From a virus: DNA of 64,000 nt. This document shows positions 8,022 through 59,391 of this stretch, piece after piece (within the stretch, counting starts at the first letter, position 1; every line of letters starts with the position of its first letter). The DNA lies in IMG/VR virus record IMGVR_UViG_3300006916_000041, positions 1 to 64,000 of that record. One strand, 5' to 3'. The position numbers and the translations under genes were made by a program. Under the pieces are notes generated by a model, which was given only the letters and a program-made list of their open reading frames with translations, did not search any database and had not been told where the DNA came from.

Positions 8022-8032
8022 TAAATACTTGC

Positions 8033-8335
8033 ATGGCAAGATGGGTACACAGAGAATTTGATTTTAGAGATTGCGGAGCAACAACGATAACTGTTTGTCC
8101 TGATGTAAGGGTAAACAGTAGACGTATTAGTATCGATGGTGATCCTAACACTGATAAAGGCGGTAGTCTGATAGCCACTGACACAGTGGGCAGTGTTAGA
8201 GCTATGGCAATTCCTGTGATATTGATAAGAGATCCTGCTAATCCAGATAGCAAATGTCCAGGAGATAGTCACTGTAATCCAAGAGCCAAAACAGCAAGTC
8301 CTGATGTACGTGCCGGTGGGAACAATAATCCATGA
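8033..8335 (+). CDS. PAAR-like tail-spike tip protein
   Basis: HR..D...CG, repeated V.VN/I...GD, H and C ligands, SPDVRAG end. Confidence 0.7.
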   Translation: MARWVHREFDFRDCGATTITVCPDVRVNSRRISIDGDPNTDKGGSLIATDTVGSVRAMAIPVILIRDPANPDSKCPGDSHCNPRAKTASPDVRAGGNNNP

Positions 8336-10863
8336 GTTTTAGAGATTTTAAACAAGGTTTGCAAAATGCAAACGACTATTTAGATGCTCAGCATCATATC
8401 AGTGGTACTATTGCTGCTGGCGCTGATGCACTGAGAGTTACTAGTCAAGCACAATACAGTTTCACACTCAGAGAAATCTTATGTCAAGTACTGAGTGGCA
8501 ATGGTATGAAATTACCAAATGTGCAACTGTGTTTGCATGCTAACATTCAAGAGTTATTAAAAATTCCAAACATACAAGGTGAGATTGCAGATGCACTAAA
8601 TCAATTGTTAGGCGGCGTAGAGCAATTTATGGATCATACTAAAATAGACAATGTTTTGGGAAGATTAAACATGGTGTTAGGAGAAGCTCAGAACGTTGCT
8701 AATCTTATCAACTTCTGTAGTGCTCCTGTAGATCCAATTGCTATTCCTAATATGTTGGAACGTGCAATGGGCAGTTTCTTAGGAGCAGGTAAACAACTTG
8801 CTAATGACATTGGTAGTATGGATCCTGGTAATGTTTGTGCATGTATTAGTACCAATGGCGGATTTAATGCCAGTGTATTCAACGGCGGCGTACTAGGAAA
8901 TATTGCCAATCAAATTGATGCAATAACAAGTGGGTCGTTAATACAAAGCGAAATTGATAGAATTGTAAACGATGTTAAGGGTATTACAGATAGAATTACT
9001 AGCTTAGTAGATTTTGAAAATAATATTATTGGTTCTTATTCACCTGGTGGTAGCCAATTTGCAACACCGGACAGCGGATGTAATAGTGAAATTGGTGTGT
9101 TGCACAATCCAGGATCAGGACCTATTAGTGGTAATAGCAGAATTTCAACACAATTAAAAAGTTTATACGACAGGCTTGCAGCTTATCCTGTGCAGTATAG
9201 TTTAGGAAGTGGAAAAGACAATACCACAGGTCATCAGTACGATGCTAATAATAATCGCATTGTTAGTGGAGAAGTAATAGAATATCCTAACATTTTTCAT
9301 CTGTTACTAGATGACGAAATGCTAAACTTGTTACGTGCAGCTGATAATCCAACACCAACGATTGAAAGTCAAATTCCGGTTTATGACTATTGTGGTAACA
9401 TAATAGGTTATACACAAGAGTTTGAACAAAGGGAACAAGAAAAAAGTCAAGGAAATACACCAACTATACCTAACAGTCCGGGTTATCGAGCAGGCGGGCT
9501 AATCACTGACACAGCTAGTCAAGTAAGTGATAATGTGTCAGTTAGTGGTACCACAGTAATTAATAACTTTAATAACACAGGTAATACACTGTATCTAGTA
9601 AGTAGTGAACAAGCACAACTTGCACTAAATGCAAACACAGACGACATTGTAATTAGAACTGATATTTTAACAATCTTCACTCGTAAAGATACAGGAGGTT
9701 TTAACACAGGAACACTAGCAGATTATCAGCAAGCAACTAGCACATTGTTTGACTTTTTAAACAACTTAAATGTAGAAAGTGGCAGTGGTGTTATTGTTAA
9801 AGATGCAGGTGTTAGTAGAGCAAGGCAAGTTGAAGGTAAAGCAGGAGAAACTCGTGTAATCAATGGTGACGGCGCTGGCGGTAACATTAGAGTTGAACTA
9901 GAAGAAAATACTAGAATACCAGGAACAGCAGCTATTAGAATACCAGCTGGTACAACTGCACAGCGGCCAAACACAGAAATTGGCGAAATACGCTATAACA
10001 CAGATACACACAATATCGAAGCATATTACGGAGATACAAACACTTGGCGTAATATTGCTAGCGGCGGCGGTAGTGGATCAATTTCAAGTGCTAGCAATGT
10101 TGGAACAGGCAGCGGTGTATTCAAACAAGCTAGCGGAAGTGATTTAGAATTTAGATCACTTGTAAATGCCGGTGGCATTAGTATTACACAAAATGCAGAT
10201 GATCTTACAATTACTGATACTATTACAAGTAGCAATGTAGGTGGTGCTAATCAAGTATTCAAACAACGTACAGCAAATAATTTTGAATTTAGAACACTGA
10301 CTAGCAGCGATAGCAGTGTTGTAATTACACAAAATGCAGATACAATCGATCTCAGCGGAGATCCAAATGTAAAGAAAACACAAGTCACAACTACAGGAAG
10401 TGGTGCAACAGCAATTCAAGTTAACGGAGTTTATCCAGAACCAGCTAGTGGGAAAACTTGGTTTTTCACTGCTTATGCTATTGGTCGTGCAACCACAGGT
10501 CAAGTACAAGCATTTAAGATTGAAGGACTAGCAGACAATCAAACCGGAACTACTAGTATTGTGAGTAACACTGTGATGAAAACAGACTATCAACGCACTA
10601 CAACAGACACAGTGCAAGCTATATGGGATCCGTTAACTGCATATATAACCAATGATAGTGTTGAATATGACGGTAACATATACCAAGCTAATACTAACGT
10701 GGCTTCAGGTGAACTAAGTCCAGATCAAAATGCTAACTGGACTGTAACTTACACTGGTTGGAACTTTAGTGCTGAAATAGACAATGGTCTTAAATTTAAA
10801 GTTAAAGGCGATGCAACAGCTAATGTTAGTTGGGATGTAAGAATCACATATTTAGAAGTATAA
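8332..10863 (+). CDS. Large virion (baseplate/fibre) protein
   Basis: IPAGTTAQRP..GEIRYNTD, repeated NVG..VFKQ..L/FEFRSL units, C-terminal W...Y...D.V.Y.G..Y.A carbohydrate-binding-like module; follows PAAR-like gene. Confidence 0.7.
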   Translation: MSFRDFKQGLQNANDYLDAQHHISGTIAAGADALRVTSQAQYSFTLREILCQVLSGNGMKLPNVQLCLHANIQELLKIPNIQGEIADALNQLLGGVEQFMDHTKIDNVLGRLNMVLGEAQNVANLINFCSAPVDPIAIPNMLERAMGSFLGAGKQLANDIGSMDPGNVCACISTNGGFNASVFNGGVLGNIANQIDAITSGSLIQSEIDRIVNDVKGITDRITSLVDFENNIIGSYSPGGSQFATPDSGCNSEIGVLHNPGSGPISGNSRISTQLKSLYDRLAAYPVQYSLGSGKDNTTGHQYDANNNRIVSGEVIEYPNIFHLLLDDEMLNLLRAADNPTPTIESQIPVYDYCGNIIGYTQEFEQREQEKSQGNTPTIPNSPGYRAGGLITDTASQVSDNVSVSGTTVINNFNNTGNTLYLVSSEQAQLALNANTDDIVIRTDILTIFTRKDTGGFNTGTLADYQQATSTLFDFLNNLNVESGSGVIVKDAGVSRARQVEGKAGETRVINGDGAGGNIRVELEENTRIPGTAAIRIPAGTTAQRPNTEIGEIRYNTDTHNIEAYYGDTNTWRNIASGGGSGSISSASNVGTGSGVFKQASGSDLEFRSLVNAGGISITQNADDLTITDTITSSNVGGANQVFKQRTANNFEFRTLTSSDSSVVITQNADTIDLSGDPNVKKTQVTTTGSGATAIQVNGVYPEPASGKTWFFTAYAIGRATTGQVQAFKIEGLADNQTGTTSIVSNTVMKTDYQRTTTDTVQAIWDPLTAYITNDSVEYDGNIYQANTNVASGELSPDQNANWTVTYTGWNFSAEIDNGLKFKVKGDATANVSWDVRITYLEV

Positions 10864-10869
10864 ATACTG

Positions 10870-13858: not shown

Positions 13859-14029
13859 ATGGTAGACGTTTTAGAAGATATCGATGTAATTGAAAATGCT
13901 CTTATTGCATTTCAAGAAGGTGCTAGCGATGAAAAATATGCGGCACTTTGGAGTTTGGAAAAACTCTTGCTCAAGAAAAAAGACATGGTTGCAGAGTTTG
14001 AAGCTACTGCGCCTGTTGAATGTTCTTGA
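13859..14029 (+). CDS. Hypothetical early protein
   Basis: AGGAG SD before ATG 13859. Confidence 0.65.
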   Translation: MVDVLEDIDVIENALIAFQEGASDEKYAALWSLEKLLLKKKDMVAEFEATAPVECS

Positions 14030-14054
14030 CAAACGCAGTCAACAGTACTATATT
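14026..14054 (+). promoter_or_regulatory. Sigma70 promoter, second class (TTGAC...GTCAA)
   Basis: TTGACA, 17-nt spacer, TATATT. Confidence 0.7.
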
Positions 14055-14076
14055 GTTTACAAAGGAGTGTAATACA

Positions 14077-14301
14077 ATGAGTACCTACGAAGTTGAAACT
14101 GTGTTTTATAACAATCACGGTGGTATCCAAACAAAAACTTGTGACTTGTTCAGTACAAAGCAACAGGCAGTAAAGCACATGAACAGTCAGATCAAACAAA
14201 AAACATATTTGGTGCAACGTGGTAAAATTAAAGACGGGCTTGTTCAATTAATCGACGAGAATGGCAAAATTAAAGAACAGCTCAGTCTTGGTGAACTATA
14301 A
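14077..14301 (+). CDS. Hypothetical protein
   Basis: AAGGAG SD. Confidence 0.65.
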   Translation: MSTYEVETVFYNNHGGIQTKTCDLFSTKQQAVKHMNSQIKQKTYLVQRGKIKDGLVQLIDENGKIKEQLSLGEL

Positions 14302-14318
14302 ACAAATTGAGGCAGAAA

Positions 14319-14822
14319 ATGAAACGACTTCTATTGAGCATCATTGCAATTATGATGACAACCAGCGTTAGCTCAGCTAATCAAGAGTTTGCGGGCTACA
14401 GCGAAGAAACATTCCCTGAAACATACTGTATGGCACTAAACATCTACTACGAAGCACGTGGTAGTAGTTTAGCAGATCAAATTGGTGTAAGTGATGTTGT
14501 ATTAAATCGTGTGCGTGACAGTCGCTATCCTAATACAGTGTGTGAAGTAGTCAAACAAGGCAAACAAGATGCCAATGGCAAGATGATTCGAAATCGTTGT
14601 CAATTTAGTTGGTATTGTGATGGTAAAGCTGATGTACCCAAAGACGAAGATTCTTGGATAGCAGCACAAACACTTGCTTGGCGCATTATGAAGTTCGAAG
14701 AGTTTCGAGGACTTACAGAAGGTGCTACACACTATCATGCCAATTATGTAAAACCCAATTGGGCTCGAGACATGACATTTGTAGGCACAATAGGAGTACA
14801 CAAGTTTTATCGATGGGATTAG
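14319..14822 (+). CDS. Cell wall hydrolase, SleB/Hydrolase_2 family
   Basis: CMALNIYYEARG, V.LNRV...YP.TVC.VV.Q, CQFSWYCDG, GATHYHA.YV.P.W, IG.H.FY; signal peptide. Confidence 0.93.
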   Translation: MKRLLLSIIAIMMTTSVSSANQEFAGYSEETFPETYCMALNIYYEARGSSLADQIGVSDVVLNRVRDSRYPNTVCEVVKQGKQDANGKMIRNRCQFSWYCDGKADVPKDEDSWIAAQTLAWRIMKFEEFRGLTEGATHYHANYVKPNWARDMTFVGTIGVHKFYRWD

Positions 14823-14835
14823 CATAAATAATTGT

Positions 14836-15540
14836 ATGCTAGTAAACGAAATTATATCAACAAACTTGAGTGAGGGTCCTAACGATCCTCACATTTTTAA
14901 AGCAGTATTCCTAGCAGGAGGACCCGGCAGTGGCAAAAGCTACGTTGCCGGTAAACTTTTGAGTGGATACGGATTAAAAACTGTAAACAGCGATGACATA
15001 TATGAATATCTAGCTAAAAAAGATGACTTAGATTTAAGTGATCCGGATCAAGTTTACAGTGACAAAGGTCAAGAAGTACGTAATCGTGCCAAAGAATTAA
15101 CCATGTCACGGCAAGCAGGATACATTGATGGTCGTCTTGGTCTTGTTATTGATGGTACTGGTAAAGATGTTGGTAAAGTACAAAAGCAAAGTGATTTGCT
15201 CAGAGATATTGGTTACGAAACTGTTATGTTGTTTGTGAACACCAGTGAAGAGGTTGCACAACAACGTAATAAAATGAGAGACAGAAGATTACCCGACAGT
15301 GTTGTGAGCAAAATGTGGGCTCAAGTACAAGACAACATTATGGGATTCCAACAAGTTTTTGGTAATAAGAATTTTTATGTAGTTGACAACAGCGGTGGAC
15401 TAGAAGATCCAGAGCGTGGAAAAAGTTTTGATGAAATTTACAAAGATATCAGATCATGGGTAAACACTCCAACACGCAATAGACAAGCCAATGCATGGCT
15501 TGCAGATCAGCAACAAAATAGTGCGAAATCCGATAAATAG
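14836..15540 (+). CDS. P-loop kinase (zeta toxin/AAA_33-like)
   Basis: AGGPGSGKS, VNSDD, VIDGTG, A..RN..R.R. Confidence 0.8.
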   Translation: MLVNEIISTNLSEGPNDPHIFKAVFLAGGPGSGKSYVAGKLLSGYGLKTVNSDDIYEYLAKKDDLDLSDPDQVYSDKGQEVRNRAKELTMSRQAGYIDGRLGLVIDGTGKDVGKVQKQSDLLRDIGYETVMLFVNTSEEVAQQRNKMRDRRLPDSVVSKMWAQVQDNIMGFQQVFGNKNFYVVDNSGGLEDPERGKSFDEIYKDIRSWVNTPTRNRQANAWLADQQQNSAKSDK

Positions 15541-15565
15541 TATATAAGACAAAGGATTTTGCAAG

Positions 15566-15913
15566 ATGTACACATATCAATGCAATACAATAAGAGTGAT
15601 AGACGGCAACACAGTTGATGCAATCATTGACTTGGGGTTCAATGTGACTATCAGACAACGAATTAAATTATATGGAGCAAACGTCCGAGACATTAGAAGT
15701 TTGGACGACGCTGAAAAAGCTCAGGCTCTAGCAAGTAAAAATCGACTAACAGAACTATTAGGGTCTGAATTTATTTGTGAAACCATTTTAAACAAAAGAG
15801 GTAAAGCAGGACGTATTATGGGAAAACTTTCAATTGTAGATAATACAGGAAAACTATTAGATGTTTCCAGTATTATGATAAATGAAGGTTTTGCTGAAAG
15901 GTTTGGAGACTAA
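15566..15913 (+). CDS. Thermonuclease (SNase)-like protein with degenerate catalytic motif
   Basis: RVIDGNTVD..IDLGF; GRIMG. Confidence 0.7.
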   Translation: MYTYQCNTIRVIDGNTVDAIIDLGFNVTIRQRIKLYGANVRDIRSLDDAEKAQALASKNRLTELLGSEFICETILNKRGKAGRIMGKLSIVDNTGKLLDVSSIMINEGFAERFGD

Positions 15914-15917
15914 GCGT

Positions 15918-17948
15918 ATGCTTTTTGGAATACTAACAATGTTTATTGCACTGTGTATCAGTGCCGTGGCAATTTACTACAGTGTAGCTGGGTTGGTTGC
16001 AATTTTTGCCGCCGCTGCTATACCAATTATTATCATGGGTGGTGTATTAGAAATTGGTAAATTGGTTACCGCTGTATGGCTTCACAGATATTGGAGTAAG
16101 GCTGCATGGTGGATGAGAACATATCTCAGTGTTGCAGTGGTAGTACTCATGTTTATTACCAGCATGGGTATTTTTGGTTTCCTATCAAAAGCACACATTG
16201 AACAAACCAGTGCCGCACAGGAACAAGTGGCACAACTTGAACGCATGGAAGAAGAAATTGTTCGTCAGCAAGAAATAATTGCTAGGGCAGAACAGCGTAT
16301 TGCCAAAGGCGAAACAGATGCTGACAAACAAGATGTGGGAATTCAAGATAAAATTGACAGAGAACAAGAACGCATTGACAGTGCATACACAAGGCGTCAA
16401 CCTAGCATTGATGAACAACAAGCTATTATCACTGCACAAGAAACAGCACTAGCAAATCGTGTTGCAGTTTATGAAGATGAAATTATCAGTTTGGACACCG
16501 AATTAACTAGATTAAATGGTTTAGTTGAAGAGTATAGAGCAGAACTTGCAAATGCTAGTGTTGCCAGTGTTGAACAACAAGTACAGCCATATAGAGATCA
16601 AATTGCACAGTTAGATGTAGATTTAGAACGTATTAACACACAAGCAAACGAATACGAACAGCGTATCAGTGGTGTAGAAGCAGATACAAGTGCAGTTGAT
16701 CCTATACTAGAACAAATACGTGCAACTGAAGAATTAATTGTTGTAACCACAAACAAATTGCAAAGTACAGAGCGTGACAAGATCAAAGAAGGTCAAGCAG
16801 TTATTGGTGTAACCAGTGACGGACTGTTTGGTAGCAACACACGCAGAGCTCTAGCAACGTGGGTAGAAGCTCAACAAGCTCGCATTCAACAATTGCAAGC
16901 ACAAGAAGTTGAATTGCGCACTAGAGCTCAAGATGCTGTAGATACAGAACGTGCTAGACTTACTGAACTAGTAAAAGACCTGCGTGGTACACAAACACAG
17001 CGCATCGACGAACGCAAGCAAGCATTATTAGATACCATTGATCGCATTCGTAGTGATGCAGCAAGTGGATTAGAAAGTCAACGAGCTGGTATACAATCAA
17101 AAATTGACAGTGTACTAAACACAGATATTCCTGCTAACAGAGAAGCAAGAAAAATTGCACAAACAACTATTACTGAATTGCGCAATCAAGAAGATCCGAG
17201 AATTGAAACAGCCAGAGCAGAGATTGCTAGAATACGTGCAGTTGCAGAAGACGAAATTGCTAATGCTCAAGCAGTGATTGAAAAACTTAGAGCTCAAATA
17301 CAAGTGGGTGAAAATGCTGATTTGGATACATTAATAGACGAGCAAAATACCCGTATTAAAGCGGCAAACAACGAAATAGATCGTATTATCGAAGAAAAGT
17401 TCAAACTAGAAGCTGAAGCACGTAAACTAGAAGCAGAGGTGGGACCTGTAAAATACATTGCAGAATTTGTGTATGGAGAAGCTGACAGAGACATACTAGA
17501 AGAAGCAGTTCGTTGGGTTATACTTACAATTATATTTGTGTTTGATCCACTAGCAGTTATGTTGTTGATAGCAGCACAGTATACATTTGAATGGAATCGA
17601 AAACCTCGGGCAAAAAAGCCTGAACCTGTTGTTGAACCAATTGAAGAAGAACAAACAGGCGTAACAGATGATGGTAGCATTGATGAAGTAGAAGCATCAG
17701 ATGCTGATATTGAACAACTACTAGAAAAAGCAGATCCAGAAGTGCTTGAGGAAGTTGCCAAGGAACTGGAAAAAGAAGTTGACAAAACACCATATGACCC
17801 TTATACTGATACAAGAGCTGACGAAGAACTTGATGCACAAGAATTAAGTCAGCGTCATAATATGAAACTTTATTCACCTGATGGTAGATTAGCCGGCACA
17901 GGTAAAACAATTAAAAGTATAAGAATCAGATCAAAGGACAACGAATAA
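15918..17948 (+). CDS. Membrane-anchored long coiled-coil protein with peptidoglycan-binding-like motif
   Basis: About 3 N-terminal TMs, heptad region, DGLFGSNTRRAL, C-proximal TM, acidic tail. Confidence 0.7.
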   Translation: MLFGILTMFIALCISAVAIYYSVAGLVAIFAAAAIPIIIMGGVLEIGKLVTAVWLHRYWSKAAWWMRTYLSVAVVVLMFITSMGIFGFLSKAHIEQTSAAQEQVAQLERMEEEIVRQQEIIARAEQRIAKGETDADKQDVGIQDKIDREQERIDSAYTRRQPSIDEQQAIITAQETALANRVAVYEDEIISLDTELTRLNGLVEEYRAELANASVASVEQQVQPYRDQIAQLDVDLERINTQANEYEQRISGVEADTSAVDPILEQIRATEELIVVTTNKLQSTERDKIKEGQAVIGVTSDGLFGSNTRRALATWVEAQQARIQQLQAQEVELRTRAQDAVDTERARLTELVKDLRGTQTQRIDERKQALLDTIDRIRSDAASGLESQRAGIQSKIDSVLNTDIPANREARKIAQTTITELRNQEDPRIETARAEIARIRAVAEDEIANAQAVIEKLRAQIQVGENADLDTLIDEQNTRIKAANNEIDRIIEEKFKLEAEARKLEAEVGPVKYIAEFVYGEADRDILEEAVRWVILTIIFVFDPLAVMLLIAAQYTFEWNRKPRAKKPEPVVEPIEEEQTGVTDDGSIDEVEASDADIEQLLEKADPEVLEEVAKELEKEVDKTPYDPYTDTRADEELDAQELSQRHNMKLYSPDGRLAGTGKTIKSIRIRSKDNE

Positions 17949-17953
17949 ACCCA

Positions 17954-18388
17954 ATGAGGGAAAACGCAATATACACAGTAACTCCGCCTGATATGATGTT
18001 GCCAGAAAGCGGGCCTATTATAACAGTAATAAGTAGTAGTGCTGACTTTGTACAAAAAATTGAATTATTGTATGAAAATATTTTTAAAAATGTCAGTGTT
18101 ACACTGTATCATCCAAATGGCAAGGTAACAGAGTCTAATAGTGCTTGGGTAATAAGTATGGTTAGATTTAGCGACACAGTTTATGTAGATTTGGATGATG
18201 TTAACGAACTTAGCCTTGCACTAATTTTATTGAGTAGCAAAACAACTATTTTTATAAATCAGCGTAACAAAAAGAAAGGACTAGTAAAACTGTTAAACAG
18301 CATGACAATACAAAATAAAAAATTTACTATTGTAGACAGCATCGACGAATACAGCGACATGGTACTAGAGAGTGTACTTGATGCGTAG
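17954..18388 (+). CDS. Hypothetical protein
   Basis: ORF track. Confidence 0.6.
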   Translation: MRENAIYTVTPPDMMLPESGPIITVISSSADFVQKIELLYENIFKNVSVTLYHPNGKVTESNSAWVISMVRFSDTVYVDLDDVNELSLALILLSSKTTIFINQRNKKKGLVKLLNSMTIQNKKFTIVDSIDEYSDMVLESVLDA

Positions 18389-18908
18389 ATTTCAAAAAGT
18401 TGCACCTAAGCAACCTATAAACGAAAATATACAGCACAATACACTGAGAGTAGTCGGAGAAGATCAACAATTTGGAATTGTTAGTTTAGACCAGGCATTG
18501 GAATTAGCTAAACAACACCAAACAGACCTAGTAGTAATAAGTGAAAAAAGCGATCCGCCGGTAGCTAAACTATTAGATGCTAATAAATATTTCTACGAAC
18601 AAAAAAGACGTGAAAAAGAAGCAGCTAAAAAACAGCGTGAAAATCAAATTGTAATCAAAGAAGTTCAGTTTAGATTGGGAATTGGTGATCATGATTTTGA
18701 CATAAAACTCAAAAACATTGAAAAGTTTTTAAGCAAAGGCAACAAAGTAAAATGTGTAATACGATATAAAGGCAGAGAAAATGCCAATAAACAACAAGGG
18801 TTTGCGATAATTGATCGTATTACTGAAAGTCTAGAAAATACTGACTGGGAAAGCAAGCCAAATCTAAATGGAAACCGATTAATCGGTGTACTAACGAGGA
18901 AAGAATGA
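18381..18908 (+). CDS. infC: Translation initiation factor IF-3
   Basis: INENI..LRVV, DLV.I....PPVAKL.D..KY.YEQK, KEVQF...I..HD...K, KVKC.I..KGRE. Confidence 0.93.
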   Translation: MRRFQKVAPKQPINENIQHNTLRVVGEDQQFGIVSLDQALELAKQHQTDLVVISEKSDPPVAKLLDANKYFYEQKRREKEAAKKQRENQIVIKEVQFRLGIGDHDFDIKLKNIEKFLSKGNKVKCVIRYKGRENANKQQGFAIIDRITESLENTDWESKPNLNGNRLIGVLTRKE

Positions 18909-19132
18909 GCAGAGATAGAACTGAAAAACAAGGACTTTATGTAGAAGTTCGTAATAATGATGTAGGTCGTGCTTTACGCAAACTTAAAAAATTAGTAAAT
19001 CAAGAAGGCGTTATAAAAGATCTAAGATCTAAAGAATATTACGAAAAACCAAGTGCTAAGAAAAAACGTGAGAAAGCACAAGCTAGAAAACGTTGGTTAA
19101 AAACTGTTGAAAAAAATAAAGAAAATTGGTAA
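18905..19132 (+). CDS. rpsU: 30S ribosomal protein bS21
   Basis: V.VRNNDV.RALRKLKK....EG, YYEKPS.KK.R. Confidence 0.92.
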   Translation: MSRDRTEKQGLYVEVRNNDVGRALRKLKKLVNQEGVIKDLRSKEYYEKPSAKKKREKAQARKRWLKTVEKNKENW

Positions 19133-19138
19133 AAAAGG

Positions 19139-19167
19139 TTGACATTTGTGTCAACAAATACTATATT
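19139..19167 (+). promoter_or_regulatory. Sigma70 promoter driving the non-coding RNA region
   Basis: TTGACA(TTTGTGTCAA), 17-nt spacer, TATATT. Confidence 0.75.
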
Positions 19168-19198
19168 AAAAGCATAACAAAGACGACGGTCTGAGTTA

Positions 19199-19377
19199 GA
19201 TAGTGCAAGGAAACGCTGCTTACAGAGGCAGTAACTTGGCTAGTAGCTGTAGTGGCACTGCATGAGCCTGGAGACAGGAAGATGCAGATTTTGGAAGTAA
19301 CTATCCAATGCTAGGCTTCGCTGGATATGGACAGGATCTGTGCTGGCGCTTGTGGGTAATCCTTAGTCCCACCTATC
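19199..19377 (+). ncRNA. Structured RNA, manA-motif-like candidate
   Basis: No ORF; closing GATAG/CTATC; hairpins CTGC/GCAG, CCTG/CAGG, TTGGA/TCCAA, ACAG/CTGT, GTGGG/CCCAC; possible AGGAT/ATCCT pseudoknot; family call from recalled layout only. Confidence 0.5.
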
Positions 19378-19384
19378 AAATATT

Positions 19385-19484
19385 ATAGTGTTTTAATATA
19401 CACACCAGAGTAGATGCACCTGCTTTCCTGTGCATAGGACAAGAGTTGAAAAACCGCAAGTGAGTGTGTATATTAAAGCGTTAT
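19385..19484 (+). ncRNA. Unknown structured RNA closed by a 21-bp stem
   Basis: 19385-19405 pairs with 19464-19484; the only 3 non-Watson-Crick pairs are all G-U. Confidence 0.65.
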
Positions 19485-19575
19485 GTATTGAACGCTTTGA
19501 TCCGAACTGTAACAAGAAAGGAGACTCACTAGACAAGAATTATAGTGGGACGACTAGAAAAACAGAGAGAAGGGT

Positions 19576-19616
19576 TGCGCCGTAATACGCACGTTAGGGA
19601 CCACGGTTAGTCCCTA
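19576..19616 (+). ncRNA. Two hairpins with complementary loops (kissing-loop candidate)
   Basis: TGCG-CCGTAATA-CGCA and TAGGGAC-CACGGTTA-GTCCCTA; CCGT/ACGG. Confidence 0.45.
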
Positions 19617-19681
19617 GATAAATAAACTTGTAGATGCCAATAGGGTCTACGTATATAAATCTTGCTTAAAAGGAGATTGAC

Positions 19682-19879
19682 ATGCAAGCACAATATTTTA
19701 ATAACCTTGTGGATCAAATCCACACACAAACAAAAACTTTCCTAAACACAATTGATCCAAGTGAACAGTACACAAAGCCTGTTAAAGCTATGGCTGAAGC
19801 AAATACTGAATTTGCTAAAACTTGGGCAAACGCAGCAGAATCAATGACAACTGCATATACAGCGGCATTGAAAGCGTAA
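19682..19879 (+). CDS. Small amphipathic Ala-rich protein (phasin-like candidate)
   Basis: AAGGAG SD; late promoter at 19619; helical pattern. Confidence 0.6.
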   Translation: MQAQYFNNLVDQIHTQTKTFLNTIDPSEQYTKPVKAMAEANTEFAKTWANAAESMTTAYTAALKA

Positions 19880-19890
19880 GGAGAGAAGCT

Positions 19891-20322: not shown

Positions 20323-20329
20323 AATAAAG

Positions 20330-20349
20330 TGGGGGGAGAAATCCCCCCA
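20330..20349 (+). terminator. GC-rich hairpin, terminator-like
   Basis: TGGGGGGA-GAAA-TCCCCCCA. Confidence 0.65.
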
Positions 20350-20370
20350 TGATTTACGATAAATACTAGT

Positions 20371-20673
20371 ATGGAAGCAACACACACAACCACAAACAAT
20401 GATATGAATATTGTTTATCAACGACCTAATAAATTTAGAGTCGTGCTTCACAATGACAACACTACACCTATCGAGTTTGTGATTGAATTGCTTAAAAATA
20501 TATTTGGTCACAATGACGAACAAGCACAAAATATTACATTGCAAGTTCACAATGAGGGCAAAGGAACTGCCGGTGTATACTACTACGAAATAGCTGAGCA
20601 AAAAGTAGCCGAAAGCACTATGATAAGTCGCACAGCAGGATTTCCACTTTCTCTTGATATTGAAGAGGTTTAA
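20371..20673 (+). CDS. clpS: Clp protease adaptor ClpS
   Basis: VVLHNDNTTPIEFV, LQVH..GKG.AG.Y..EIAE.K, FPL. Confidence 0.93.
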   Translation: MEATHTTTNNDMNIVYQRPNKFRVVLHNDNTTPIEFVIELLKNIFGHNDEQAQNITLQVHNEGKGTAGVYYYEIAEQKVAESTMISRTAGFPLSLDIEEV

Positions 20674-21786: not shown

Positions 21787-21797
21787 TAAATAGTTGC

Positions 21798-23147
21798 ATG
21801 AGAGCATTTGAACTATTAGAATCCAGAGGTGTGACTGCAAGAGCACCTGGCGAAACATACGTTAGTGATACAGATCCTAGCGACATTCTTACTATGCAAG
21901 ACATTACAGTGTTGCCCAACGAAGGCGGTGATTCATATGAAGATATGGATCAAATGATGCAGGCTGTAGACAGTGTTATTCCAGACACAAACACACGAGT
22001 TGATGACAACAAACCCAACAGTGGAACCAGAGCCGCTATTATTGCGTCAGTGACTGACAGTAACAATCAACCTCAATACTGGGTACGTTACATCAGAGCT
22101 ATTCCACCACAAGGTGTACACACCATGTGGAAAACACTCAGAGGATATAAGTTCAGTCAAGGTGCAGAAAAAGAAAGTGTGCCAATCAAACCAGCAGATT
22201 TAATTCCTGACGAAAACTATCGCACAGCAAGTCAATTAGCACAACAAATCAAACAAGGTACACAAGCATTAGGGGATCTTGGAGAAGTTATGGCAGATGC
22301 AGTTGATCAAGCATTGAAAGGTCAACAAAATCCGATCCCAGGCGCTGGAAAATATTACAATGTTTTACAAAAGTATGGCGGAGAATATCTAGGTCCAATT
22401 GCACTTATGAGTAATCCTGGTAGTGTCACAGGCGATACAGCAAAAATGATGGAAGCATTTAATTTAACCAATCTAGCTGGTAGTAGTGTTATGTTTCCTC
22501 AGGACAAAGCAGCAGAATTAATCGACAGTATTATTCAAACAGCAGACGGACGTAGTATTCAAGTTAGCAGTAAGATCAGCACAAGTGGTGGCGCAGCCAG
22601 CAGTCTTAGTGGTGTTTACAAACAAATGACACCAGAAATCGAACAGCGTTTTCCAGAAGGTGCAAAAATTATTGAATTGCTTGCAACTGAGAGTGCAGTA
22701 AATGGTCCACTAAAAGTAGCACGTATGTTTAATATTATCGACGATGATGATATTAGAGCAATGGCAAACTTGGACAAGCGCACACAAAACATTGGTGATT
22801 TGCAAAGTGAACGCTTACAGCAAATGACACAACAACAAGGTGTTGCCACTGGTACACAAGAAAGACCAGACTATAGAGTATTTTGGCATGCACTAACAGC
22901 CGTTATGAATGCAGTCATTCCACAAGTAAATGCAAACGAACAATTTAAAAATGCTATGCTGGAAGTACTCAACAACAACGAGTATGTACAATTGGTTACC
23001 AAAGCACAGCAAGCACAAGGCAGAGATGCAGTAACAATGCAATACTATACCAAGTTTCCAGCAGTGTTCAAAGGTGCGCCGCAGTTGGTCAACAAGACTT
23101 ATTTTGCAACAGGACAAAAAGGCCGTATTGGTTTCAAACTAAAATAA
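21798..23147 (+). CDS. Hypothetical late protein, possible PD-(D/E)xK-like fold
   Basis: ELIDSII...IQVSSK; TAAATA-N5-ATG start. Confidence 0.6.
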   Translation: MRAFELLESRGVTARAPGETYVSDTDPSDILTMQDITVLPNEGGDSYEDMDQMMQAVDSVIPDTNTRVDDNKPNSGTRAAIIASVTDSNNQPQYWVRYIRAIPPQGVHTMWKTLRGYKFSQGAEKESVPIKPADLIPDENYRTASQLAQQIKQGTQALGDLGEVMADAVDQALKGQQNPIPGAGKYYNVLQKYGGEYLGPIALMSNPGSVTGDTAKMMEAFNLTNLAGSSVMFPQDKAAELIDSIIQTADGRSIQVSSKISTSGGAASSLSGVYKQMTPEIEQRFPEGAKIIELLATESAVNGPLKVARMFNIIDDDDIRAMANLDKRTQNIGDLQSERLQQMTQQQGVATGTQERPDYRVFWHALTAVMNAVIPQVNANEQFKNAMLEVLNNNEYVQLVTKAQQAQGRDAVTMQYYTKFPAVFKGAPQLVNKTYFATGQKGRIGFKLK

Positions 23148-23244
23148 GCTATGCACAAAATGCATAACGTCTTTTTAATCTTTGCTGTAGCTAATAGGTC
23201 AGAATTGCTGTACTATAATTATAAATAAAATTGTTAACACAACA

Positions 23245-23362: not shown

Positions 23363-23387
23363 AAACAACAATGTAAAGGAACAGAGA

Positions 23388-23803: not shown

Positions 23804-23822
23804 TTGACTGCTACGTTTTAAC

Positions 23823-23864: not shown

Positions 23865-23888
23865 TTATTATACACAACGGAGACACAG

Positions 23889-26921: not shown

Positions 26922-26936
26922 GTATTAAATACTAGT

Positions 26937-27512
26937 ATGAAGATTGTATACATACATGGCGCCACTGCAAGTGAGCGCAGTTTTGCATTTGTGCAAAAAA
27001 GCATCGGTGCTAAAAAACCCTTATACCTAAACTATGATAAAAGTACAACTGCAAAAGACAACTTGCAGGTCATGTATGACACACTAGAAAATGAAAAAGG
27101 ATCATTCTTTTACATTGTACACAGTTTGGGTGGCATATACGCAACATATTTGCAAAAACATTTTGAAGGTCGCAGCGTTGGGTGTGTTAGTCTTGCTACT
27201 CCTTTTGGTGGTAGTGAAATAGCCAGTTGGGGCAGCATGTTAAATCCTGGATATCAACTGTTCAGAGACATTGCTCCTACTAGCAGTTTTATACGAGACA
27301 GTAGACGCACACCAATCACAATACCTTGGACACAAGTACTAACCACTGTAGGAGATGTGCCTTGGCTCAGTGGTCGCAATGACGGTATAGTTACCTATAA
27401 AAGTATGACATGCAGAACAGATGTAGAATACGAACAAGTGGACCGCAATCATTATGAAATTGTTCTTAGTCAAAGAGCGGTTGACATTATCAAACAAAGG
27501 CTGTATAAATAA
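26937..27512 (+). CDS. Alpha/beta hydrolase
   Basis: YIHGA, VHSLGG, LATPFGGS, NDG.V, NHYE. Confidence 0.88.
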   Translation: MKIVYIHGATASERSFAFVQKSIGAKKPLYLNYDKSTTAKDNLQVMYDTLENEKGSFFYIVHSLGGIYATYLQKHFEGRSVGCVSLATPFGGSEIASWGSMLNPGYQLFRDIAPTSSFIRDSRRTPITIPWTQVLTTVGDVPWLSGRNDGIVTYKSMTCRTDVEYEQVDRNHYEIVLSQRAVDIIKQRLYK

Positions 27513-28985: not shown

Positions 28986-29495
28986 ATGCAACTTAAAAGT
29001 GTACTAGCAGTTGTTCTTGCGGTGTCTGCTTGCGGCCCTACTATAACTGTTGATGGTAAATCGATACCCAATGCACCTGGTCATGTAGTAACTGCTATAG
29101 ACAAATACGGTTTAAACGAATACCAAAATAGAACTGAAATCAAAGAATATACTGGCATAGATCCTAAACATTACGAATGGTGTGCTGCATTTGTGAATGC
29201 AGTATTGCGTGAAAGCGATATACCAGGCAGCGAAAGTGTGAGCGAATATCCACTGATGGCCCGTAGTTTTTTAAAATGGGGCGAACCTGTAACAGGTGAT
29301 CCGGAGGCAGGAGATATTGTTGTATTTCCTAGAGGAGAACAAGGCTGGAAAGGACATGTGGGTTTTTATGTTGGCACTGAATTTAAAAATGATCGAAAAT
29401 ACTATCGCATACTAGGCGGAAATCAAAGTAATATGGTAAACATTGAACTTTATCCTGCCAATCGAGCACTTGGAATACGCAGACAAAATAAATAG
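28986..29495 (+). CDS. TIGR02594-like (NlpC/P60/CHAP-type) cell-wall amidase with lipobox
   Basis: VSAC lipobox; WCAAFVN, GDIVVFPRG, GHVGF, LGGNQSN. Confidence 0.85.
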   Translation: MQLKSVLAVVLAVSACGPTITVDGKSIPNAPGHVVTAIDKYGLNEYQNRTEIKEYTGIDPKHYEWCAAFVNAVLRESDIPGSESVSEYPLMARSFLKWGEPVTGDPEAGDIVVFPRGEQGWKGHVGFYVGTEFKNDRKYYRILGGNQSNMVNIELYPANRALGIRRQNK

Positions 29496-29499
29496 TTGT

Positions 29500-29841
29500 A
29501 TGTTAACATGGTTTAAGACAGAACCCATTGATTGGAGCGACATTGAACGATTGGAACAGCGAATACGTGATATTCGAAGGCGCATCAGGCAAGCGAAAGG
29601 TACACAGAAGCAATTTCTTCCCCCACCGAGGATGGACACACAAAAAACAATCGAATCCTTACGCAACAAAAGTGCTAACCTTAGAACAAGTCTTAGAGAA
29701 GGAAAAGAGATACTTCCAAGCCCTAGCCAAGACCAACAAAACTTTCAAAGAAAAAGAAAAGAAACAGAAACGCAAAAAAGAACCGCAACCGGAGCAACCT
29801 GTGAAGACCTCAAAACAAAACTCCTCAAGAGAAAAAACTAA
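29500..29841 (+). CDS. Basic hypothetical late protein
   Basis: TAAATA-N5-ATG start. Confidence 0.5.
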   Translation: MLTWFKTEPIDWSDIERLEQRIRDIRRRIRQAKGTQKQFLPPPRMDTQKTIESLRNKSANLRTSLREGKEILPSPSQDQQNFQRKRKETETQKRTATGATCEDLKTKLLKRKN

Positions 29842-29883
29842 GATCCCCTTTTAAAAACTAAATAGTAGTATAGGAGTATAACC

Positions 29884-31176
29884 ATGGCTGCAAACGGAAT
29901 ATCTACTTTAACAGGTGGAACAGACATTGAAAATAAAGAAACTAGACAGATAGCAAAACTCAACATTGCCCAAGCAAAACGCAGAGGACAAGTAGTTGCA
30001 GTTGACGGAACTATCACTGGCACAAATGACAGTACCAAACCTTATTTTAGATACTGGAATACCTATGACCGTTTGTACCTCCAAGGTCCTTACAACATTG
30101 CAGAAAATTTAACTTTTAACAGTCAGCCACACAGACCGTGGGTAAGCAATGCCGGTGGTGTTGTGCTTGCCGTTCCCACAGTGAACAGTCAAACTGATGC
30201 ACCTAGCCAACCAACAATTACAGGTACATATGATGTGCTAGCAGCCGCACTCACTGTAACTATCGACGGAACCACATACACATTGGGCGTTGATAGTGAA
30301 CTCACAGTAGACGGCGGCGGCAACTGGACACTGGACTTGGATGGGTCAGCACAAACACTGGCATTTGAATCAACATTTGATGTTGTAGTTAACACAGATG
30401 GTATAGTAGACACAACCACAAATGAGATTGCAACAGGCAGTGAAATTGCTACAATTATCGCTGATGCTAGTACCAGCTTGCAGATTTGGTATGATGGTAG
30501 TGACATTACACAATTCCAGCCAACCAATCCAAGTGATGGTCAAACTATCACACAGTGGAATGACAAATCAGACTTTGCACACAATGCTAACCCAATTGGT
30601 GGTGCTACATACAGACCGACATATGAAACTAACGAACTCAACAGTTTGAGTGTTGTACAATTTGATGGTGTTGATGATTGCTTGAGTGTGAATCCATTTA
30701 CACAAATTGCAGGTGCTGGTGCATTTACTATCTTTATGGTAGCCAAAACAACTGATATCGCAAACGCTCAGGTATTTGGAGCAACCAACAATCTAGACTT
30801 GAAAATCGAACTTGTTAACAGCGGCGGAACTCATTATTACTGCACAAGAGTAAATGGCGGCACTGGTGTAAGCACGGTAGCAGCAGACACAAATTATCAT
30901 ATTTTAACACTGGTGTATAACGGTAACGGTGTAGGTAATAGTGGAAAAGTTCAATTCAGACATGACAAAGTTGCACAAACCTTGAACTTTACGGGAACTG
31001 TTAACAGCACCACAGTTGGTAGTAACACAACTTACTATTTTGGTTGTGCTGGCGGCGGCGTTGGACATTTACAAGGTAGTATGGCAGAAGTACTGATGTT
31101 TAACAGAGCATTAAACTCAACAGAACTAGACGATGTTGAACAGTATCTCAACACACACTGGGCACTAGGATTATAA
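29884..31176 (+). CDS. Virion protein with Ig-like and LamG/concanavalin-like domains
   Basis: PTITGT..LTVTIDG.TY, WTL; W.D.S...H, V.FDG.DD, G..AEVLMFNRAL..E...YL...W. Confidence 0.7.
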   Translation: MAANGISTLTGGTDIENKETRQIAKLNIAQAKRRGQVVAVDGTITGTNDSTKPYFRYWNTYDRLYLQGPYNIAENLTFNSQPHRPWVSNAGGVVLAVPTVNSQTDAPSQPTITGTYDVLAAALTVTIDGTTYTLGVDSELTVDGGGNWTLDLDGSAQTLAFESTFDVVVNTDGIVDTTTNEIATGSEIATIIADASTSLQIWYDGSDITQFQPTNPSDGQTITQWNDKSDFAHNANPIGGATYRPTYETNELNSLSVVQFDGVDDCLSVNPFTQIAGAGAFTIFMVAKTTDIANAQVFGATNNLDLKIELVNSGGTHYYCTRVNGGTGVSTVAADTNYHILTLVYNGNGVGNSGKVQFRHDKVAQTLNFTGTVNSTTVGSNTTYYFGCAGGGVGHLQGSMAEVLMFNRALNSTELDDVEQYLNTHWALGL

Positions 31177-33695: not shown

Positions 33696-33895
33696 GAATA
33701 CCAATCAAAGAGCATAAACCATGGCCTAAAAAGATATACAAATTCTTTGTTGTAAATTCAAAAGGCCAGGTGATAGAAGGCGGTCTTCCAAGCGAAGAAC
33801 ACGCACGTACTGTTATTGATTTTTTATCAGAACAAGAAGGAATGACAGATTTAACAATCGAAGTTGATTGTATGCCTGATACTAAAAGAGGTTGA
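33692..33895 (+). CDS. Hypothetical protein
   Basis: AGGAG SD. Confidence 0.6.
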   Translation: MRIPIKEHKPWPKKIYKFFVVNSKGQVIEGGLPSEEHARTVIDFLSEQEGMTDLTIEVDCMPDTKRG

Positions 33896-33925
33896 CATGT
33901 TGTTAAAATATGCTATATTAGTAAT

Positions 33926-34081
33926 ATGACATATGAACAAGCATTAGAAAATTCGCAATTTAGATTGGACTACCAAGACAATTGTGATGAACGTGAAGCC
34001 TGGGGAGATCCGGTGTTAACTCGAGAAGAATATTTTGAAATATGGGATAGGAGAAATGAACCATGCGAATCTTTAAAATAA
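33926..34081 (+). CDS. 51-aa hypothetical protein, leaderless candidate
   Basis: TTGACA 33892, TATATT 33914-33919, ATG 6 nt later. Confidence 0.5.
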   Translation: MTYEQALENSQFRLDYQDNCDEREAWGDPVLTREEYFEIWDRRNEPCESLK

Positions 34082-37400: not shown

Positions 37401-37432
37401 CGCCATAAATACTCCTGTAAGAGGAGAAAATT

Positions 37433-37855
37433 ATGACGCAACCAAGTCCCTATAGCTATAGGGTTAAAAGCATTGTAAAAATCATTGACGGTGACACATT
37501 TGATTGTATAATGGATTTAGGATTTGATGTGTTGCTTGAAGCAAGAGTCCGCATGGCGGGCATAGATACACCGGAGAGTAGAACTAGAGACCTAGAAGAA
37601 AAGAAGTTCGGATTACTTGCCAAAGAATGGCTAATTGCACATTTGAATGATAATATAATTATATCAACTCAACTGGACAATGAAAAAGGTAAATTTGGTA
37701 GAGTATTAGGAACAGTATGGGCAGAAGGTACTAACATCAACGAAAAAATGATCGAGGAGCATATGGCAGTAAGATATCATGGTCAAGCTAAAAGCGATGT
37801 TGAAGCGGAACATTTGCAGAATCGACAAATACTAACAGAACAAGGCAAAATATGA
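37433..37855 (+). CDS. Thermonuclease (SNase)-like protein
   Basis: IIDGDT.D..DLGF, R.AGIDTPES, GKFGR.LG. Confidence 0.88.
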   Translation: MTQPSPYSYRVKSIVKIIDGDTFDCIMDLGFDVLLEARVRMAGIDTPESRTRDLEEKKFGLLAKEWLIAHLNDNIIISTQLDNEKGKFGRVLGTVWAEGTNINEKMIEEHMAVRYHGQAKSDVEAEHLQNRQILTEQGKI

Positions 37856-42694: not shown

Positions 42695-42723
42695 TTGACA
42701 CGGGCTTCGGCCCGTGTTATATT
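42695..42723 (+). promoter_or_regulatory. Sigma70 promoter whose spacer forms a cUUCGg hairpin
   Basis: TTGACA, 17-nt spacer, TATATT; ACACGGGC-TTCG-GCCCGTGT. Confidence 0.7.
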
Positions 42724-42728
42724 TTAGT

Positions 42729-42974
42729 ATGTTTTTAAATTTACAACACCTTACAATCGAGCAACTAATTGAAAAACAAATCGAGTTGCGACAAAAAATC
42801 TCTCAAGCACATCAACTTGGCATGTCAGGTGCTGTAGGTCAATTACAAAACACACTAGATCAAATTGGTATTGAAATTAGTGCTAAAAGCCAAATACAAT
42901 CATTGGAAAAAGAACGTGAGAAAAAAATAGAAGATGGCAAAGACCCAGACGATGATGTGTTAAATATAGGATGA
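42729..42974 (+). CDS. Hypothetical coiled-coil protein
   Basis: ATG 5 nt after -10. Confidence 0.6.
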   Translation: MFLNLQHLTIEQLIEKQIELRQKISQAHQLGMSGAVGQLQNTLDQIGIEISAKSQIQSLEKEREKKIEDGKDPDDDVLNIG

Positions 42975-53983: not shown

Positions 53984-54508
53984 TTAAACTAATCCTAAAG
54001 ATTGACACATAGCGTGTAATTCGTGATAGTCCAATGATTCTTCACTTTTATCGAATCCGATAGATAACATCCATCGTTCTTGGTGTTCATTGATTATTGT
54101 ATGCTCAACAGTGGTGTTAAACAAATACAGTTGATTAGGTTCATACACCAGCTCATCAATCTGATGAAGATATTTGTTTATCTTATTTCCAAAATAAGTA
54201 TGTCCTTGACCTTTGATTAGCATATTAATTGCACAATCTCGTATACCATCACAGTGCCATTCATAACAAGTCCAGGGATTCATGTGAAAGACCATACCTC
54301 CCATATTACATGGAGTGTTATCTAGAATCTGTTTAATAACTGGATCTTGGTTTAATATTTCTGTAGGAATTATACCTTTGCCAAAGCCTCTTAAGGCGTT
54401 AAAGTCAAAAAAATCACTACCTGCAGATTCTATGTACTCTTGTATGGTAGACCGAATAGTAGAATGTTGATTTAATGGTTCATATGCATCTTTTATTCTA
54501 TATTTCAT
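53984..54508 (-). CDS. Cupin/2OG-Fe(II) oxygenase-like protein
   Basis: WHCD...CAIN, YLFNT..EH...N....R..LS. Confidence 0.7.
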   Translation of the reverse strand: MKYRIKDAYEPLNQHSTIRSTIQEYIESAGSDFFDFNALRGFGKGIIPTEILNQDPVIKQILDNTPCNMGGMVFHMNPWTCYEWHCDGIRDCAINMLIKGQGHTYFGNKINKYLHQIDELVYEPNQLYLFNTTVEHTIINEHQERWMLSIGFDKSEESLDYHELHAMCQSLGLV

Positions 54509-54529
54509 AAAAATATTTATAAAAAACTC

Positions 54530-58059: not shown

Positions 58060-58778
58060 CTAGCTTCGTCGTAAATTTGTAGTACGTCTGCCACAACGGG
58101 ATGTCTTTCAACGTCCCGTTTTTCAAATTGCACATGAGCAATTGTGTTAACAGTTTGTGCATTGTATTTGTTTAAAAAGTCTTTTAGACCATTGTTTGTA
58201 AATCCCCTATCATGTTGAGCAAGGTCGCCTGTTACTACTATTTTACTACCTTCACCAATTCGGGTTAACAGCATTTTAGTTTGCTCTTGAGTTGCATTTT
58301 GCATTTCATCTGCAATGATCCAACTTTGCTTAAATGTGCGTCCACGCATATACGCTAACGGTGAGATTTCAATTGTCTTGTTCTCAACCATCTGTAGTAC
58401 TTGTTTAGGGTTGTAGTATTCTTCGAGAAAGTCGAAGATTGGTCTGGTCCAGGGTTCCATTTTTTGTTTTAAGTCACCGGGCAAAAAGCCGTGTTGTTCG
58501 TCAACACTAACGGCAGGTCTGGTGATTACTAGTTTTTCTACTTCGCCATCTTCCAACTTTCTAATACCCATTTGCACAGCCATCATGGTTTTGCCTGTTC
58601 CTGCTGGACCAGTTGCAAATACTATGTGTTTGGATGCGTCATCTAGGTAATCAAGAAGATCTTCTTGATGCAAGTTGCGAGGTAGAATTTGTAGTTTCTT
58701 TCTGCGATAATCTTGCAGTTCGATCACCATTTCGTTGAATGAACCTCTCGGGTTTTGTTTTCTTGCTCTTTTAGCCAT
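58056..58778 (-). CDS. phoH: PhoH-like protein
   Basis: GPAGTGKT, TRPAV, GFLPG, PLAYMRGRT, DEMQN, LTRIG, GDL.Q.D, RHP.V. Confidence 0.95.
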   Translation of the reverse strand: MAKRARKQNPRGSFNEMVIELQDYRRKKLQILPRNLHQEDLLDYLDDASKHIVFATGPAGTGKTMMAVQMGIRKLEDGEVEKLVITRPAVSVDEQHGFLPGDLKQKMEPWTRPIFDFLEEYYNPKQVLQMVENKTIEISPLAYMRGRTFKQSWIIADEMQNATQEQTKMLLTRIGEGSKIVVTGDLAQHDRGFTNNGLKDFLNKYNAQTVNTIAHVQFEKRDVERHPVVADVLQIYDEAS

Positions 58779-58854
58779 TTTGTTGTAAACTCCATGTTGT
58801 CTGCGAGCCCATGTTGTCTACACTATTACTTATCAAGAAAGACTAAATATACGT

Positions 58855-59391
58855 ATGAAAGAGATCGAAGAATTAAAACAAACACTGGATAACTTAATTG
58901 ATTCTAGCAGCGATTTAGATATCTTGTTGGAATTTGAAGAAGTGTTGGATAACCTAAATTTATATGCATACAAAAATTGGGAGCATGGAGAAGTTATTGC
59001 TGGTCCAGAAGTCAGCAAATATTGGATCACTGTTACAATGATGTGGCCTCGCAAACTTATGCCAGATCCTGATGGTGCATTGAGATTGACCAAAAACAAC
59101 TGTAGAGTGTTTTTTCAAAAAGATGTTTTTGTAGAACCTAAAAAAATTGTTACACCAGACGATTTAGGAGAAGTTGATCCAGAAACAGGCAAACGCAAAC
59201 CCAAACAGGTCAAACGTCCAATTTGGTTGGTGCGTATTGAAATGCCACGTCAATATGTTGATGAATTTGAATCAAGCAAAATTACTATCAACGGTCACGA
59301 CATTGACATGAGTGAAGTTGATGGAGCATATGACAGTGATTACGACAACGAACTCAATCCAGACAAACAAGACTTAGGAGTAGACCAATGA
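58855..59391 (+). CDS. Hypothetical late protein
   Basis: TAAATA-N5-ATG; MPDPDGA. Confidence 0.7.
   Translation: MKEIEELKQTLDNLIDSSSDLDILLEFEEVLDNLNLYAYKNWEHGEVIAGPEVSKYWITVTMMWPRKLMPDPDGALRLTKNNCRVFFQKDVFVEPKKIVTPDDLGEVDPETGKRKPKQVKRPIWLVRIEMPRQYVDEFESSKITINGHDIDMSEVDGAYDSDYDNELNPDKQDLGVDQ

Follow-up and report, generated by a model that had tools for sequence, protein, structure and literature searches.

A stretch of phage DNA carries the box TAAATA at two alternative distances from the genes that follow it: exactly five nucleotides (nt) before the ATG (TAAATA-N5-ATG, the N5 layout), or farther upstream, where the intervening leader carries a Shine-Dalgarno (SD) sequence. This bimodal promoter-to-ATG design is real and conserved, and it most likely reflects leaderless mRNAs made from T4-type late promoters, together with some from early promoters. 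The stretch analysed (the window, 64,000 nt) is the first 64 kb of IMG/VR virus record IMGVR_UViG_3300006916_000041 (G000; 172,409 bp, 38% GC). Coordinates are window positions, and sites numbered above 64,000 (122093, 127205, 131128 and 145078) lie in the rest of the 172,409-bp record. CheckV places the record at ~48% completeness, which implies a genome size near 350 kb.

Our analysis establishes the motif together with the statistics of its spacing and its conservation, and shows that the N5 genes lack an alternative start or SD sequence. We infer promoter function, the site of transcription initiation and late timing, and consider it probable that a T4-type late promoter is placed so that its +1 nucleotide is the A of the AUG, giving a leaderless mRNA. 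The parts of this arrangement are known, since leaderless phage late transcripts and T4 late promoters have both been described, and what is new is their combination in the N5 layout. No description of the layout was found in the literature searched, including that on the cultured Pelagibacter phage HTVC008M, which shares it.

Spacing and conservation of the N5 layout

Occurrences of TAAATA-Nk-ATG were counted on both strands of the whole record for k from 0 to 40, with the ATG required to open an open reading frame (ORF) of at least 50 amino acids (aa). Twelve were found at k=5 and between 0 and 5 at each other spacing (mean 1.5), an excess corresponding to a Poisson P of 5.7e-8. A second, broad hump is seen at k=15-27, and spacings of 6-14 nt are nearly empty. 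When every hexamer (4096) was examined at spacings 0-15, giving 65,536 combinations, TAAATA at k=5 took rank 2, with 12 occurrences observed versus 0.67 expected (P=9e-12). The remaining top ranks were held by SD words or by ATAAAT at k=6, which is TAAATA shifted by one base. Together, the spacing counts and the hexamer scan rule out a chance origin of the peak.

Eleven of the 12 N5 sites coincide with called gene starts: 8033, 14836, 20371, 21798, 26937, 29500, 54508 (minus strand), 58855, 122093, 127205 (minus strand) and 131128 (minus strand). The eight in the window had already been listed in a sequence-only reading of this DNA, and each was recovered:

8022..8035 (+): TAAATA-N5-ATG of a 100-aa gene (box 8022-8027, ATG 8033); box directly after the preceding stop; orthologues in related fragments G001 and G005 are N5 with other spacer bases
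14825..14838 (+): TAAATA-N5-ATG of a P-loop kinase gene (AAA_33/Zeta_toxin, 234 aa)
20360..20373 (+): TAAATA-N5-ATG of clpS, located 3′ of a GC-rich terminator-like hairpin at 20330-20349
21787..21800 (+): TAAATA-N5-ATG of a conserved 449-aa gene; N5 kept in 12 of 15 close loci
26926..26939 (+): TAAATA-N5-ATG of a 191-aa gene
29489..29502 (+): TAAATA-N5-ATG of a 113-aa gene; box overlapped by the TAG stop of the upstream gene
54506..54519 (-): TAAATA-N5-ATG of a 174-aa gene, which diverges from a sigma70-driven gene at 54593
58844..58857 (+): TAAATA-N5-ATG of the gene for a virion structural protein (phrog_12928); located at a divergent junction, heading a co-directional run that includes infA

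Among the gene labels proposed in that reading, ClpS, the P-loop kinase, IF3, bS21 and IF1 have matches exceeding Pfam cut-offs; neither Pfam nor PHROG gave a match for the genes labelled ‘PAAR-like’ (8033) and ‘hydrolase’ (26937). The twelfth site, ATAAATA-N5-ATG at G000 75,481-75,495 (plus strand), opens only a 62-aa ORF that is absent from the gene call.

All N5 starts are ATG, and in 10 of the 11 called genes this ATG is the earliest possible start of the ORF; the 29500 gene has two in-frame TTG codons upstream, within the preceding gene. None of the 11 genes has a later start codon equipped with an SD sequence, and the N5 start itself leaves no room for one because the spacer after the box is 5 nt. 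At least three of the 11 proteins, when read by eye, open with motif-like N termini (SGGxxS for 122093, glycine-rich sequence for 127205 and IHG for 26937). The 5′ ends of N5 genes are slightly less structured than other gene starts (0.7 versus 1.7 kcal/mol unfolding energy, P=0.04), although the difference is weak.

Conservation was assessed in ten related IMG/VR fragments (32-127 kb, 40-86% protein identity), which were retrieved whole by means of the 449-aa protein encoded at 21798. These fragments and G000 are all incomplete (10-48%), and G001-G004 are mutually close, so that about seven independent lineages are represented. The sequence-only reading had anticipated a sharp peak at a spacing of five, and it is present both genome-wide and in all ten fragments, where k=5 counts are 8, 6, 6, 6, 6, 8, 9, 3, 4 and 2 and neighbouring spacings are near zero. 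Between orthologous sites the spacer bases differ, yet the box and the length of 5 nt are retained; the spacers of kinase-gene orthologues, for example, read attgt, aatgc and tatgt. These comparisons indicate that the N5 spacing is under selection. Three sites at spacing 6 were seen in each of G006 and G007, beside 8-9 at spacing 5, which suggests either that the start site is somewhat flexible or that some leaders are one base long.

Individual genes alternate between the two layouts. Orthologues of the 21798 gene are preceded by TAAATA and an SD leader of 22, 26 or 33 nt at three loci (L048, L019 and L064, respectively) and are coupled directly to the upstream gene at two more (L052 and L058), and the 58855 orthologue in G006 has TAAATA followed by a 24-nt SD leader. 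Given an SD sequence the box is thus flexible in position, like a promoter and unlike a ribosome-binding signal.

The N5 layout recurs in HTVC008M (KC465899), a cultured T4-like SAR11 myophage that is not a close relative. At a spacing of 5 its genome has 12 sites, whereas the other spacings average 1.0 (P=8e-10). All 12 are annotated coding sequence starts, mostly of late structural genes, among them those for the tape measure, the DNA end protector, head completion, tail completion and, twice, the baseplate. Their ATGs lie at 6280, 7562, 11972, 16007 (minus strand), 18916 (minus strand), 18943, 19456, 31132, 49760, 75559, 75830 and 142360. Both phages have a divergent pair of boxes: HTVC008M carries back-to-back inverted boxes in a 26-nt divergent region (18,916-18,943) with both genes N5, and G000 carries such a pair in a 45-nt region (127,206-127,250, locus L092) with one gene N5 and the other behind a 20-nt SD leader. 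They further share a bS21 gene and an alphaproteobacterial host, the latter being the probable one for G000 (see below). HTVC008M differs in that it encodes gp55, lacks IF1 and IF3 and has almost no SD-led TAAATA class. A megablast search for annotated relatives with a 12-kb stretch of the phage gave no match, and a tblastn search with one 430-aa phage protein gave a single, weak match to a Pseudanabaena phage, with none to HTVC008M. No N5 peak was found in phages S-PM2, phiM12 and Atu_ph07.

TAAATA as a putative T4-type promoter box

In the arrangement that we favour, TAAATA (usually ATAAATA) would serve a T4-style late promoter as its -10-type box, with no -35 element present. If T4 geometry applies, with the box at -13 to -6, transcription would start at the sixth base after it. 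A box 15-50 nt before the ATG would then produce a leader carrying an SD sequence, and each of the 11 N5 boxes would place the A of the AUG at +1, yielding an mRNA that has neither leader nor SD sequence. Ribosomes would translate such mRNAs after binding directly to the 5′-terminal AUG, a capacity that the host should already possess. For the genes at the five N5 sites close behind an upstream gene, re-initiation on read-through transcripts can provide a second route of expression.

About a quarter of the TAAATA boxes in the phage lie exactly 5 nt before an ATG. The hexamer also stands 15-50 nt before about 30-35 other genes, whose leaders nearly all carry an SD sequence. Three sites of this SD-led class had been noted previously and are present:

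2857..2883 (+): TAAATA and an 18-nt leader with AGGAG
29859..29886 (+): TAAATA and a 19-nt leader with AGGAG
37406..37435 (+): TAAATA and a 21-nt leader with AGGAG

A box-to-gene distance of 15-50 nt is compatible with a promoter and too far for a ribosome-binding signal. This bears on an alternative that we regard as unlikely, namely that TAAATA-N5 acts in RNA as an AU-rich non-SD ribosome-binding or standby signal (for example, for protein S1) on longer transcripts and is not a promoter. A fixed distance to the ATG is indeed what a ribosome-binding motif would be expected to show, but the identical hexamer occurs at greater distances before genes that have their own SD sequence, and at least 59% of genes in G000 use SD sequences of four or more bases. 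Read-through RNA is to be expected at five of the 11 sites, which are located within co-directional gene runs, and contigs from RNA libraries bridge 20371 and 29500 (four runs compared over 14000-33999), although DNA carry-over is possible. The other six head transcription units, at divergent junctions of 14-84 nt (54508, 58855, 122093, 127205 and 131128) or after a terminator (20371, as judged from the terminator-like hairpin before the clpS box), and no other promoter candidate was found at any of them. Moreover, TAAATA is the core of the T4 late promoter and precedes orthologues of T4 late genes in the gp55-encoding HTVC008M.

RNA polymerase generally favours start sites at which a pyrimidine (-1) is followed by a purine (+1). 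A pyrimidine precedes the ATG at 11 of 11 N5 sites, compared with 41% of all genes. At positions 5-6 after the box, a pyrimidine-purine step is present at 22 of 36 SD-led boxes versus 36 of 103 other TAAATA copies (P=0.006). The presence of this signature in both classes argues for a single start distance, at the sixth base after the box, and it is a further point against a signal confined to RNA. The N5 and SD-led boxes also have a loose spacer consensus in common. TAAATA itself is invariant, and an A precedes it at 9 of 11 N5 sites, 17 of 36 SD-led sites and 17 of 103 other copies. Sequence logos of the N5 and SD-led boxes revealed no conserved upstream (-35) element. We also considered TAAATA as a sigma70 -10 hexamer and rejected this on inspection, as it mismatches the most conserved -10 positions in either register; the true sigma70-type promoters of this genome read TTGACA-N16-18-TAnnnT. 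Collectively, these patterns support the view that TAAATA acts as a promoter box.

The T4 late promoter, TATAAATA, spans -13 to -6 and is served by the sigma factor gp55, the co-activator gp33 and the gp45 clamp (PMC1524935, PMC2988020). The phage studied here resembles T4 in its core box, in the absence of a -35 element, in the many copies before individual genes and in the implied distance from box to start. However, T4 has no N5 class, since TATAAATA-Nk-ATG has zero occurrences at k=5 in 152 kb and peaks at k~25-28, and the T at -13 is not conserved in our phage, whose consensus is A-TAAATA.

Parallels to the proposed 5′ ends come from Thermus phages phiYS40 and Lalka27a, in which middle and late transcripts begin ~6 bp downstream of a lone -10-type element and have the A or G of the start codon as their first base. 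The lone element and the start codon at the 5′ end resemble what we predict, although the consensus and host are different, and in those phages most transcripts are leaderless and their starts have been mapped. Leaderless mRNAs are also known from bacteria, as in lambda cI transcribed from PRM and in about 17% of the mRNAs of Caulobacter, a member of the alphaproteobacteria. They resemble the mRNAs predicted for the phage in having a 5′-terminal AUG, in strongly preferring this start codon, in not tolerating short leaders and in needing an unstructured 5′ end, and the near-emptiness of spacings 6-14 nt fits the published penalty that short leaders carry for leaderless mRNAs. The difference is that in our phage the 5′ end is predicted to be set by a phage-specific promoter class.

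It is also conceivable, if quite improbable, that the boxes are promoters whose transcripts are poorly translated or not translated. Protein would then come mainly from polycistronic read-through mRNA, on which ribosomes terminate and re-initiate at closely spaced stop and start codons. For 8033, 14836, 21798, 26937 and 29500, the box either overlaps the stop codon of the upstream gene or follows it by 0-11 nt, and many other genes that lack an SD sequence abut or overlap their upstream neighbour. This mechanism is inapplicable to the six sites without a co-directional upstream gene, and it gives no reason for a spacing of exactly 5 nt that persists from lineage to lineage despite drift of the spacer bases. 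The TAA of the box was considered as a stop codon for the preceding gene and discarded, as no constant relation exists: the stop falls before the box, overlaps its end or is absent.

Several points weigh against leaderless transcription from T4-type late promoters. A start displaced by 1-2 bases would yield a short leader or truncate the AUG, and metatranscriptome runs from salt marsh and freshwater contain parts of the phage as assembled contigs, which cannot display transcript starts, strand or expression levels. No gp55 was found in the ~48% of the genome that G000 represents using phrog_234, phrog_12791, the T4 gp55 protein or PF04542 (Sigma70_r2), and phrog_234 likewise had no match in the ten related fragments, which are incomplete. 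Neither gp33 (phrog_254) nor a gp45-family clamp (phrog_223) was found in the partial G000. Only one recognisably structural N5 gene is present in G000 (58855), and most box-led genes there are unannotated or metabolic. Thus the label ‘late’ and the identity of the factor that would read the box lean on analogy and on HTVC008M. The missing gp55, gp33 and clamp carry little weight because all records are partial. The same gp55 search does find gp55 in HTVC008M, S-PM2, phiM12 and Atu_ph07. A 243-aa gene after polB matches only phrog_12062, a family of unknown function.

If the start sites are confirmed, T4-type late promoters would be seen to make leaderless mRNAs as a regular, conserved design, both in environmental giant phages and in a cultured SAR11 phage. 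A single short box would then both start transcription and define the start of translation. For annotation, gene callers that depend on SD sequences can miss or shift N5 starts. HTVC008M and Pelagibacter offer a direct experimental route to the layout.

Sigma70-type promoters with a predicted leaderless layout and the phage translation factors

The sequence-only reading had proposed two classes of late mRNA and had also pointed to three sigma70 promoters with the ATG 5-6 nt after the -10 element. These promoters are indeed present:

2150..2187 (+): sigma70-type promoter TTGACA-N17-TACATT, ATG (2185) 6 nt after the -10; conserved in G001, G002, G005 and G006
33892..33928 (+): sigma70-type promoter, ATG (33926) 6 nt after the -10
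42695..42731 (+): sigma70-type promoter, ATG (42729) 5 nt after the -10; conserved in relatives

A fourth lies at 145078 (minus strand), and ~25 other sigma70-type promoters have leaders of 22-77 nt. For the 2185 and 42729 arrangements, promoter spacers have diverged in relatives while the distance to the ATG (5-6 nt) is unchanged. N5 stands as a discrete alternative to the SD-led class, but a specifically late programme is not borne out, since sigma70-type promoters conserved in relatives have the same leaderless layout. If the genes behind them are leaderless early genes, host ribosomes must translate leaderless mRNA before any phage factor exists.

This last point bears on a coupling that had been proposed between the N5 layout and translation genes of the phage, all three of which are real and full length:

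18372..18908 (+): infC, full-length IF3 with N and C domains; near end-to-end alignment with Thermus IF3
18905..19132 (+): rpsU (bS21); start overlaps the infC stop by 4 nt
60197..60415 (+): infA (IF1)

According to this proposal, IF3, bS21 and IF1 made by the phage would retune host ribosomes and set the balance between leaderless and SD-led late mRNAs. We judge it highly improbable, although some evidence is congenial to it. The infA gene sits within the run headed by the N5 promoter at 58844, bS21 is encoded in this clade as well as in HTVC008M, the two lineages in which the peak is seen, and the levels of initiation factors alter leaderless translation in Escherichia coli (PMC9031893). In addition, the leaderless late mRNAs of YS40 reportedly go together with a shift in host IF2 and IF3 (PMC3594737).

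The gene content of other phages does not follow the layout, however. HTVC008M, a complete genome, shows the strongest N5 peak without IF3 or IF1, and its bS21 gene has no TAAATA within 2.5 kb upstream. Conversely, Atu_ph07 (MF403008; 490 kb, alphaproteobacterial host) has adjacent genes for IF3 (256-501, minus strand) and bS21 (489120-489257, minus strand) across the ends of its circular record, the same infC-rpsU pairing as at 18372-19132 of the window, yet it has no N5 peak. Among the related fragments, G007 and G009 have the peak and none of infA, infC and rpsU, and G006 has the peak and bS21 without the other two. A correlation of gene presence with the layout across phages had been suggested as a check; the complete genomes, which are too few for statistics, argue against IF3 and IF1 being required.

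For IF3, the known effect is also in the opposite direction. Raised IF3 is reported to inhibit leaderless translation, which IF1 and IF2 enhance (PMC9031893), so extra phage IF3 would oppose the N5 class. YS40, the published case of a leaderless late programme tied to initiation factors, is reported to lower host IF3, whereas the phage in the window adds an IF3 gene, and its gene content (IF3 and IF1, not IF2) departs from the YS40-type balance of more IF2 and less IF3. Furthermore, upstream of infC and rpsU there are TAAATA boxes at 14825 and ~15535 and, nearer to the two genes, a possible sigma70-like promoter. This match, TTGACA-17-TATACT (11 of 12 positions; 17779-17807, plus strand), is located in the 3′ end of a 676-aa gene, ~150 nt before the gene preceding infC, and might allow early expression of IF3 and bS21.

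The coupling of the layout to IF1, IF3 and bS21 is unsupported, and with it an attractive explanation for the presence of these factors in big phages is removed. Equally improbable is a variant in which phage bS21, found in both independent N5 lineages, would enter host ribosomes during infection, perhaps with IF3 and IF1 in phages that have them, and shift initiation between 5′-AUG and SD-led mRNAs, so that the distance from promoter to ATG would label the translational class of a gene for ribosomes modified by the phage. Genes for bS21 and initiation factors are known from huge phages (PMC7162821, PMC6375957, PMC9723584), and bS21 of Bacteroidetes phages has been linked to late-stage expression. 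Our phage likewise carries bS21, IF3 and IF1, although neither published nor present evidence links these genes to leaderless mRNAs.

Host and neighbouring genes

The phage encodes a permuted transfer-messenger RNA (tmRNA) of the alpha type at 27477-27821 of the window (plus strand; Rfam alpha_tmRNA, 115.8 bits), for which ARAGORN predicts the tag peptide ANDNRAPEMALAA. A permuted tmRNA of this type suggests an alphaproteobacterial host, and the host is probably an alphaproteobacterium. T4-like gp43, gp44, RNase H, NrdAB, Td, Tk and Frd were also found in G000.

A set of protein quality-control genes is present, comprising HSP20 (19822-20322), the ClpS adaptor (20371-20673) and a 746-aa ClpA-like ATP-dependent protease. 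The last of these occupies 61965-64000 of the window, with the gene ending at 64205, and matches phrog_4871 (E=2e-231).

Finally, a sigma70-type promoter cassette is repeated in the window, with approximate starts at 12494, 50131, 54530, 55050, 55820 and 57433. The cassette has a palindrome-like AAGACnTCTTG in the promoter spacer and a near-identical leader, in which tatgtaagtt is followed by gagaaaa and then by an SD sequence.

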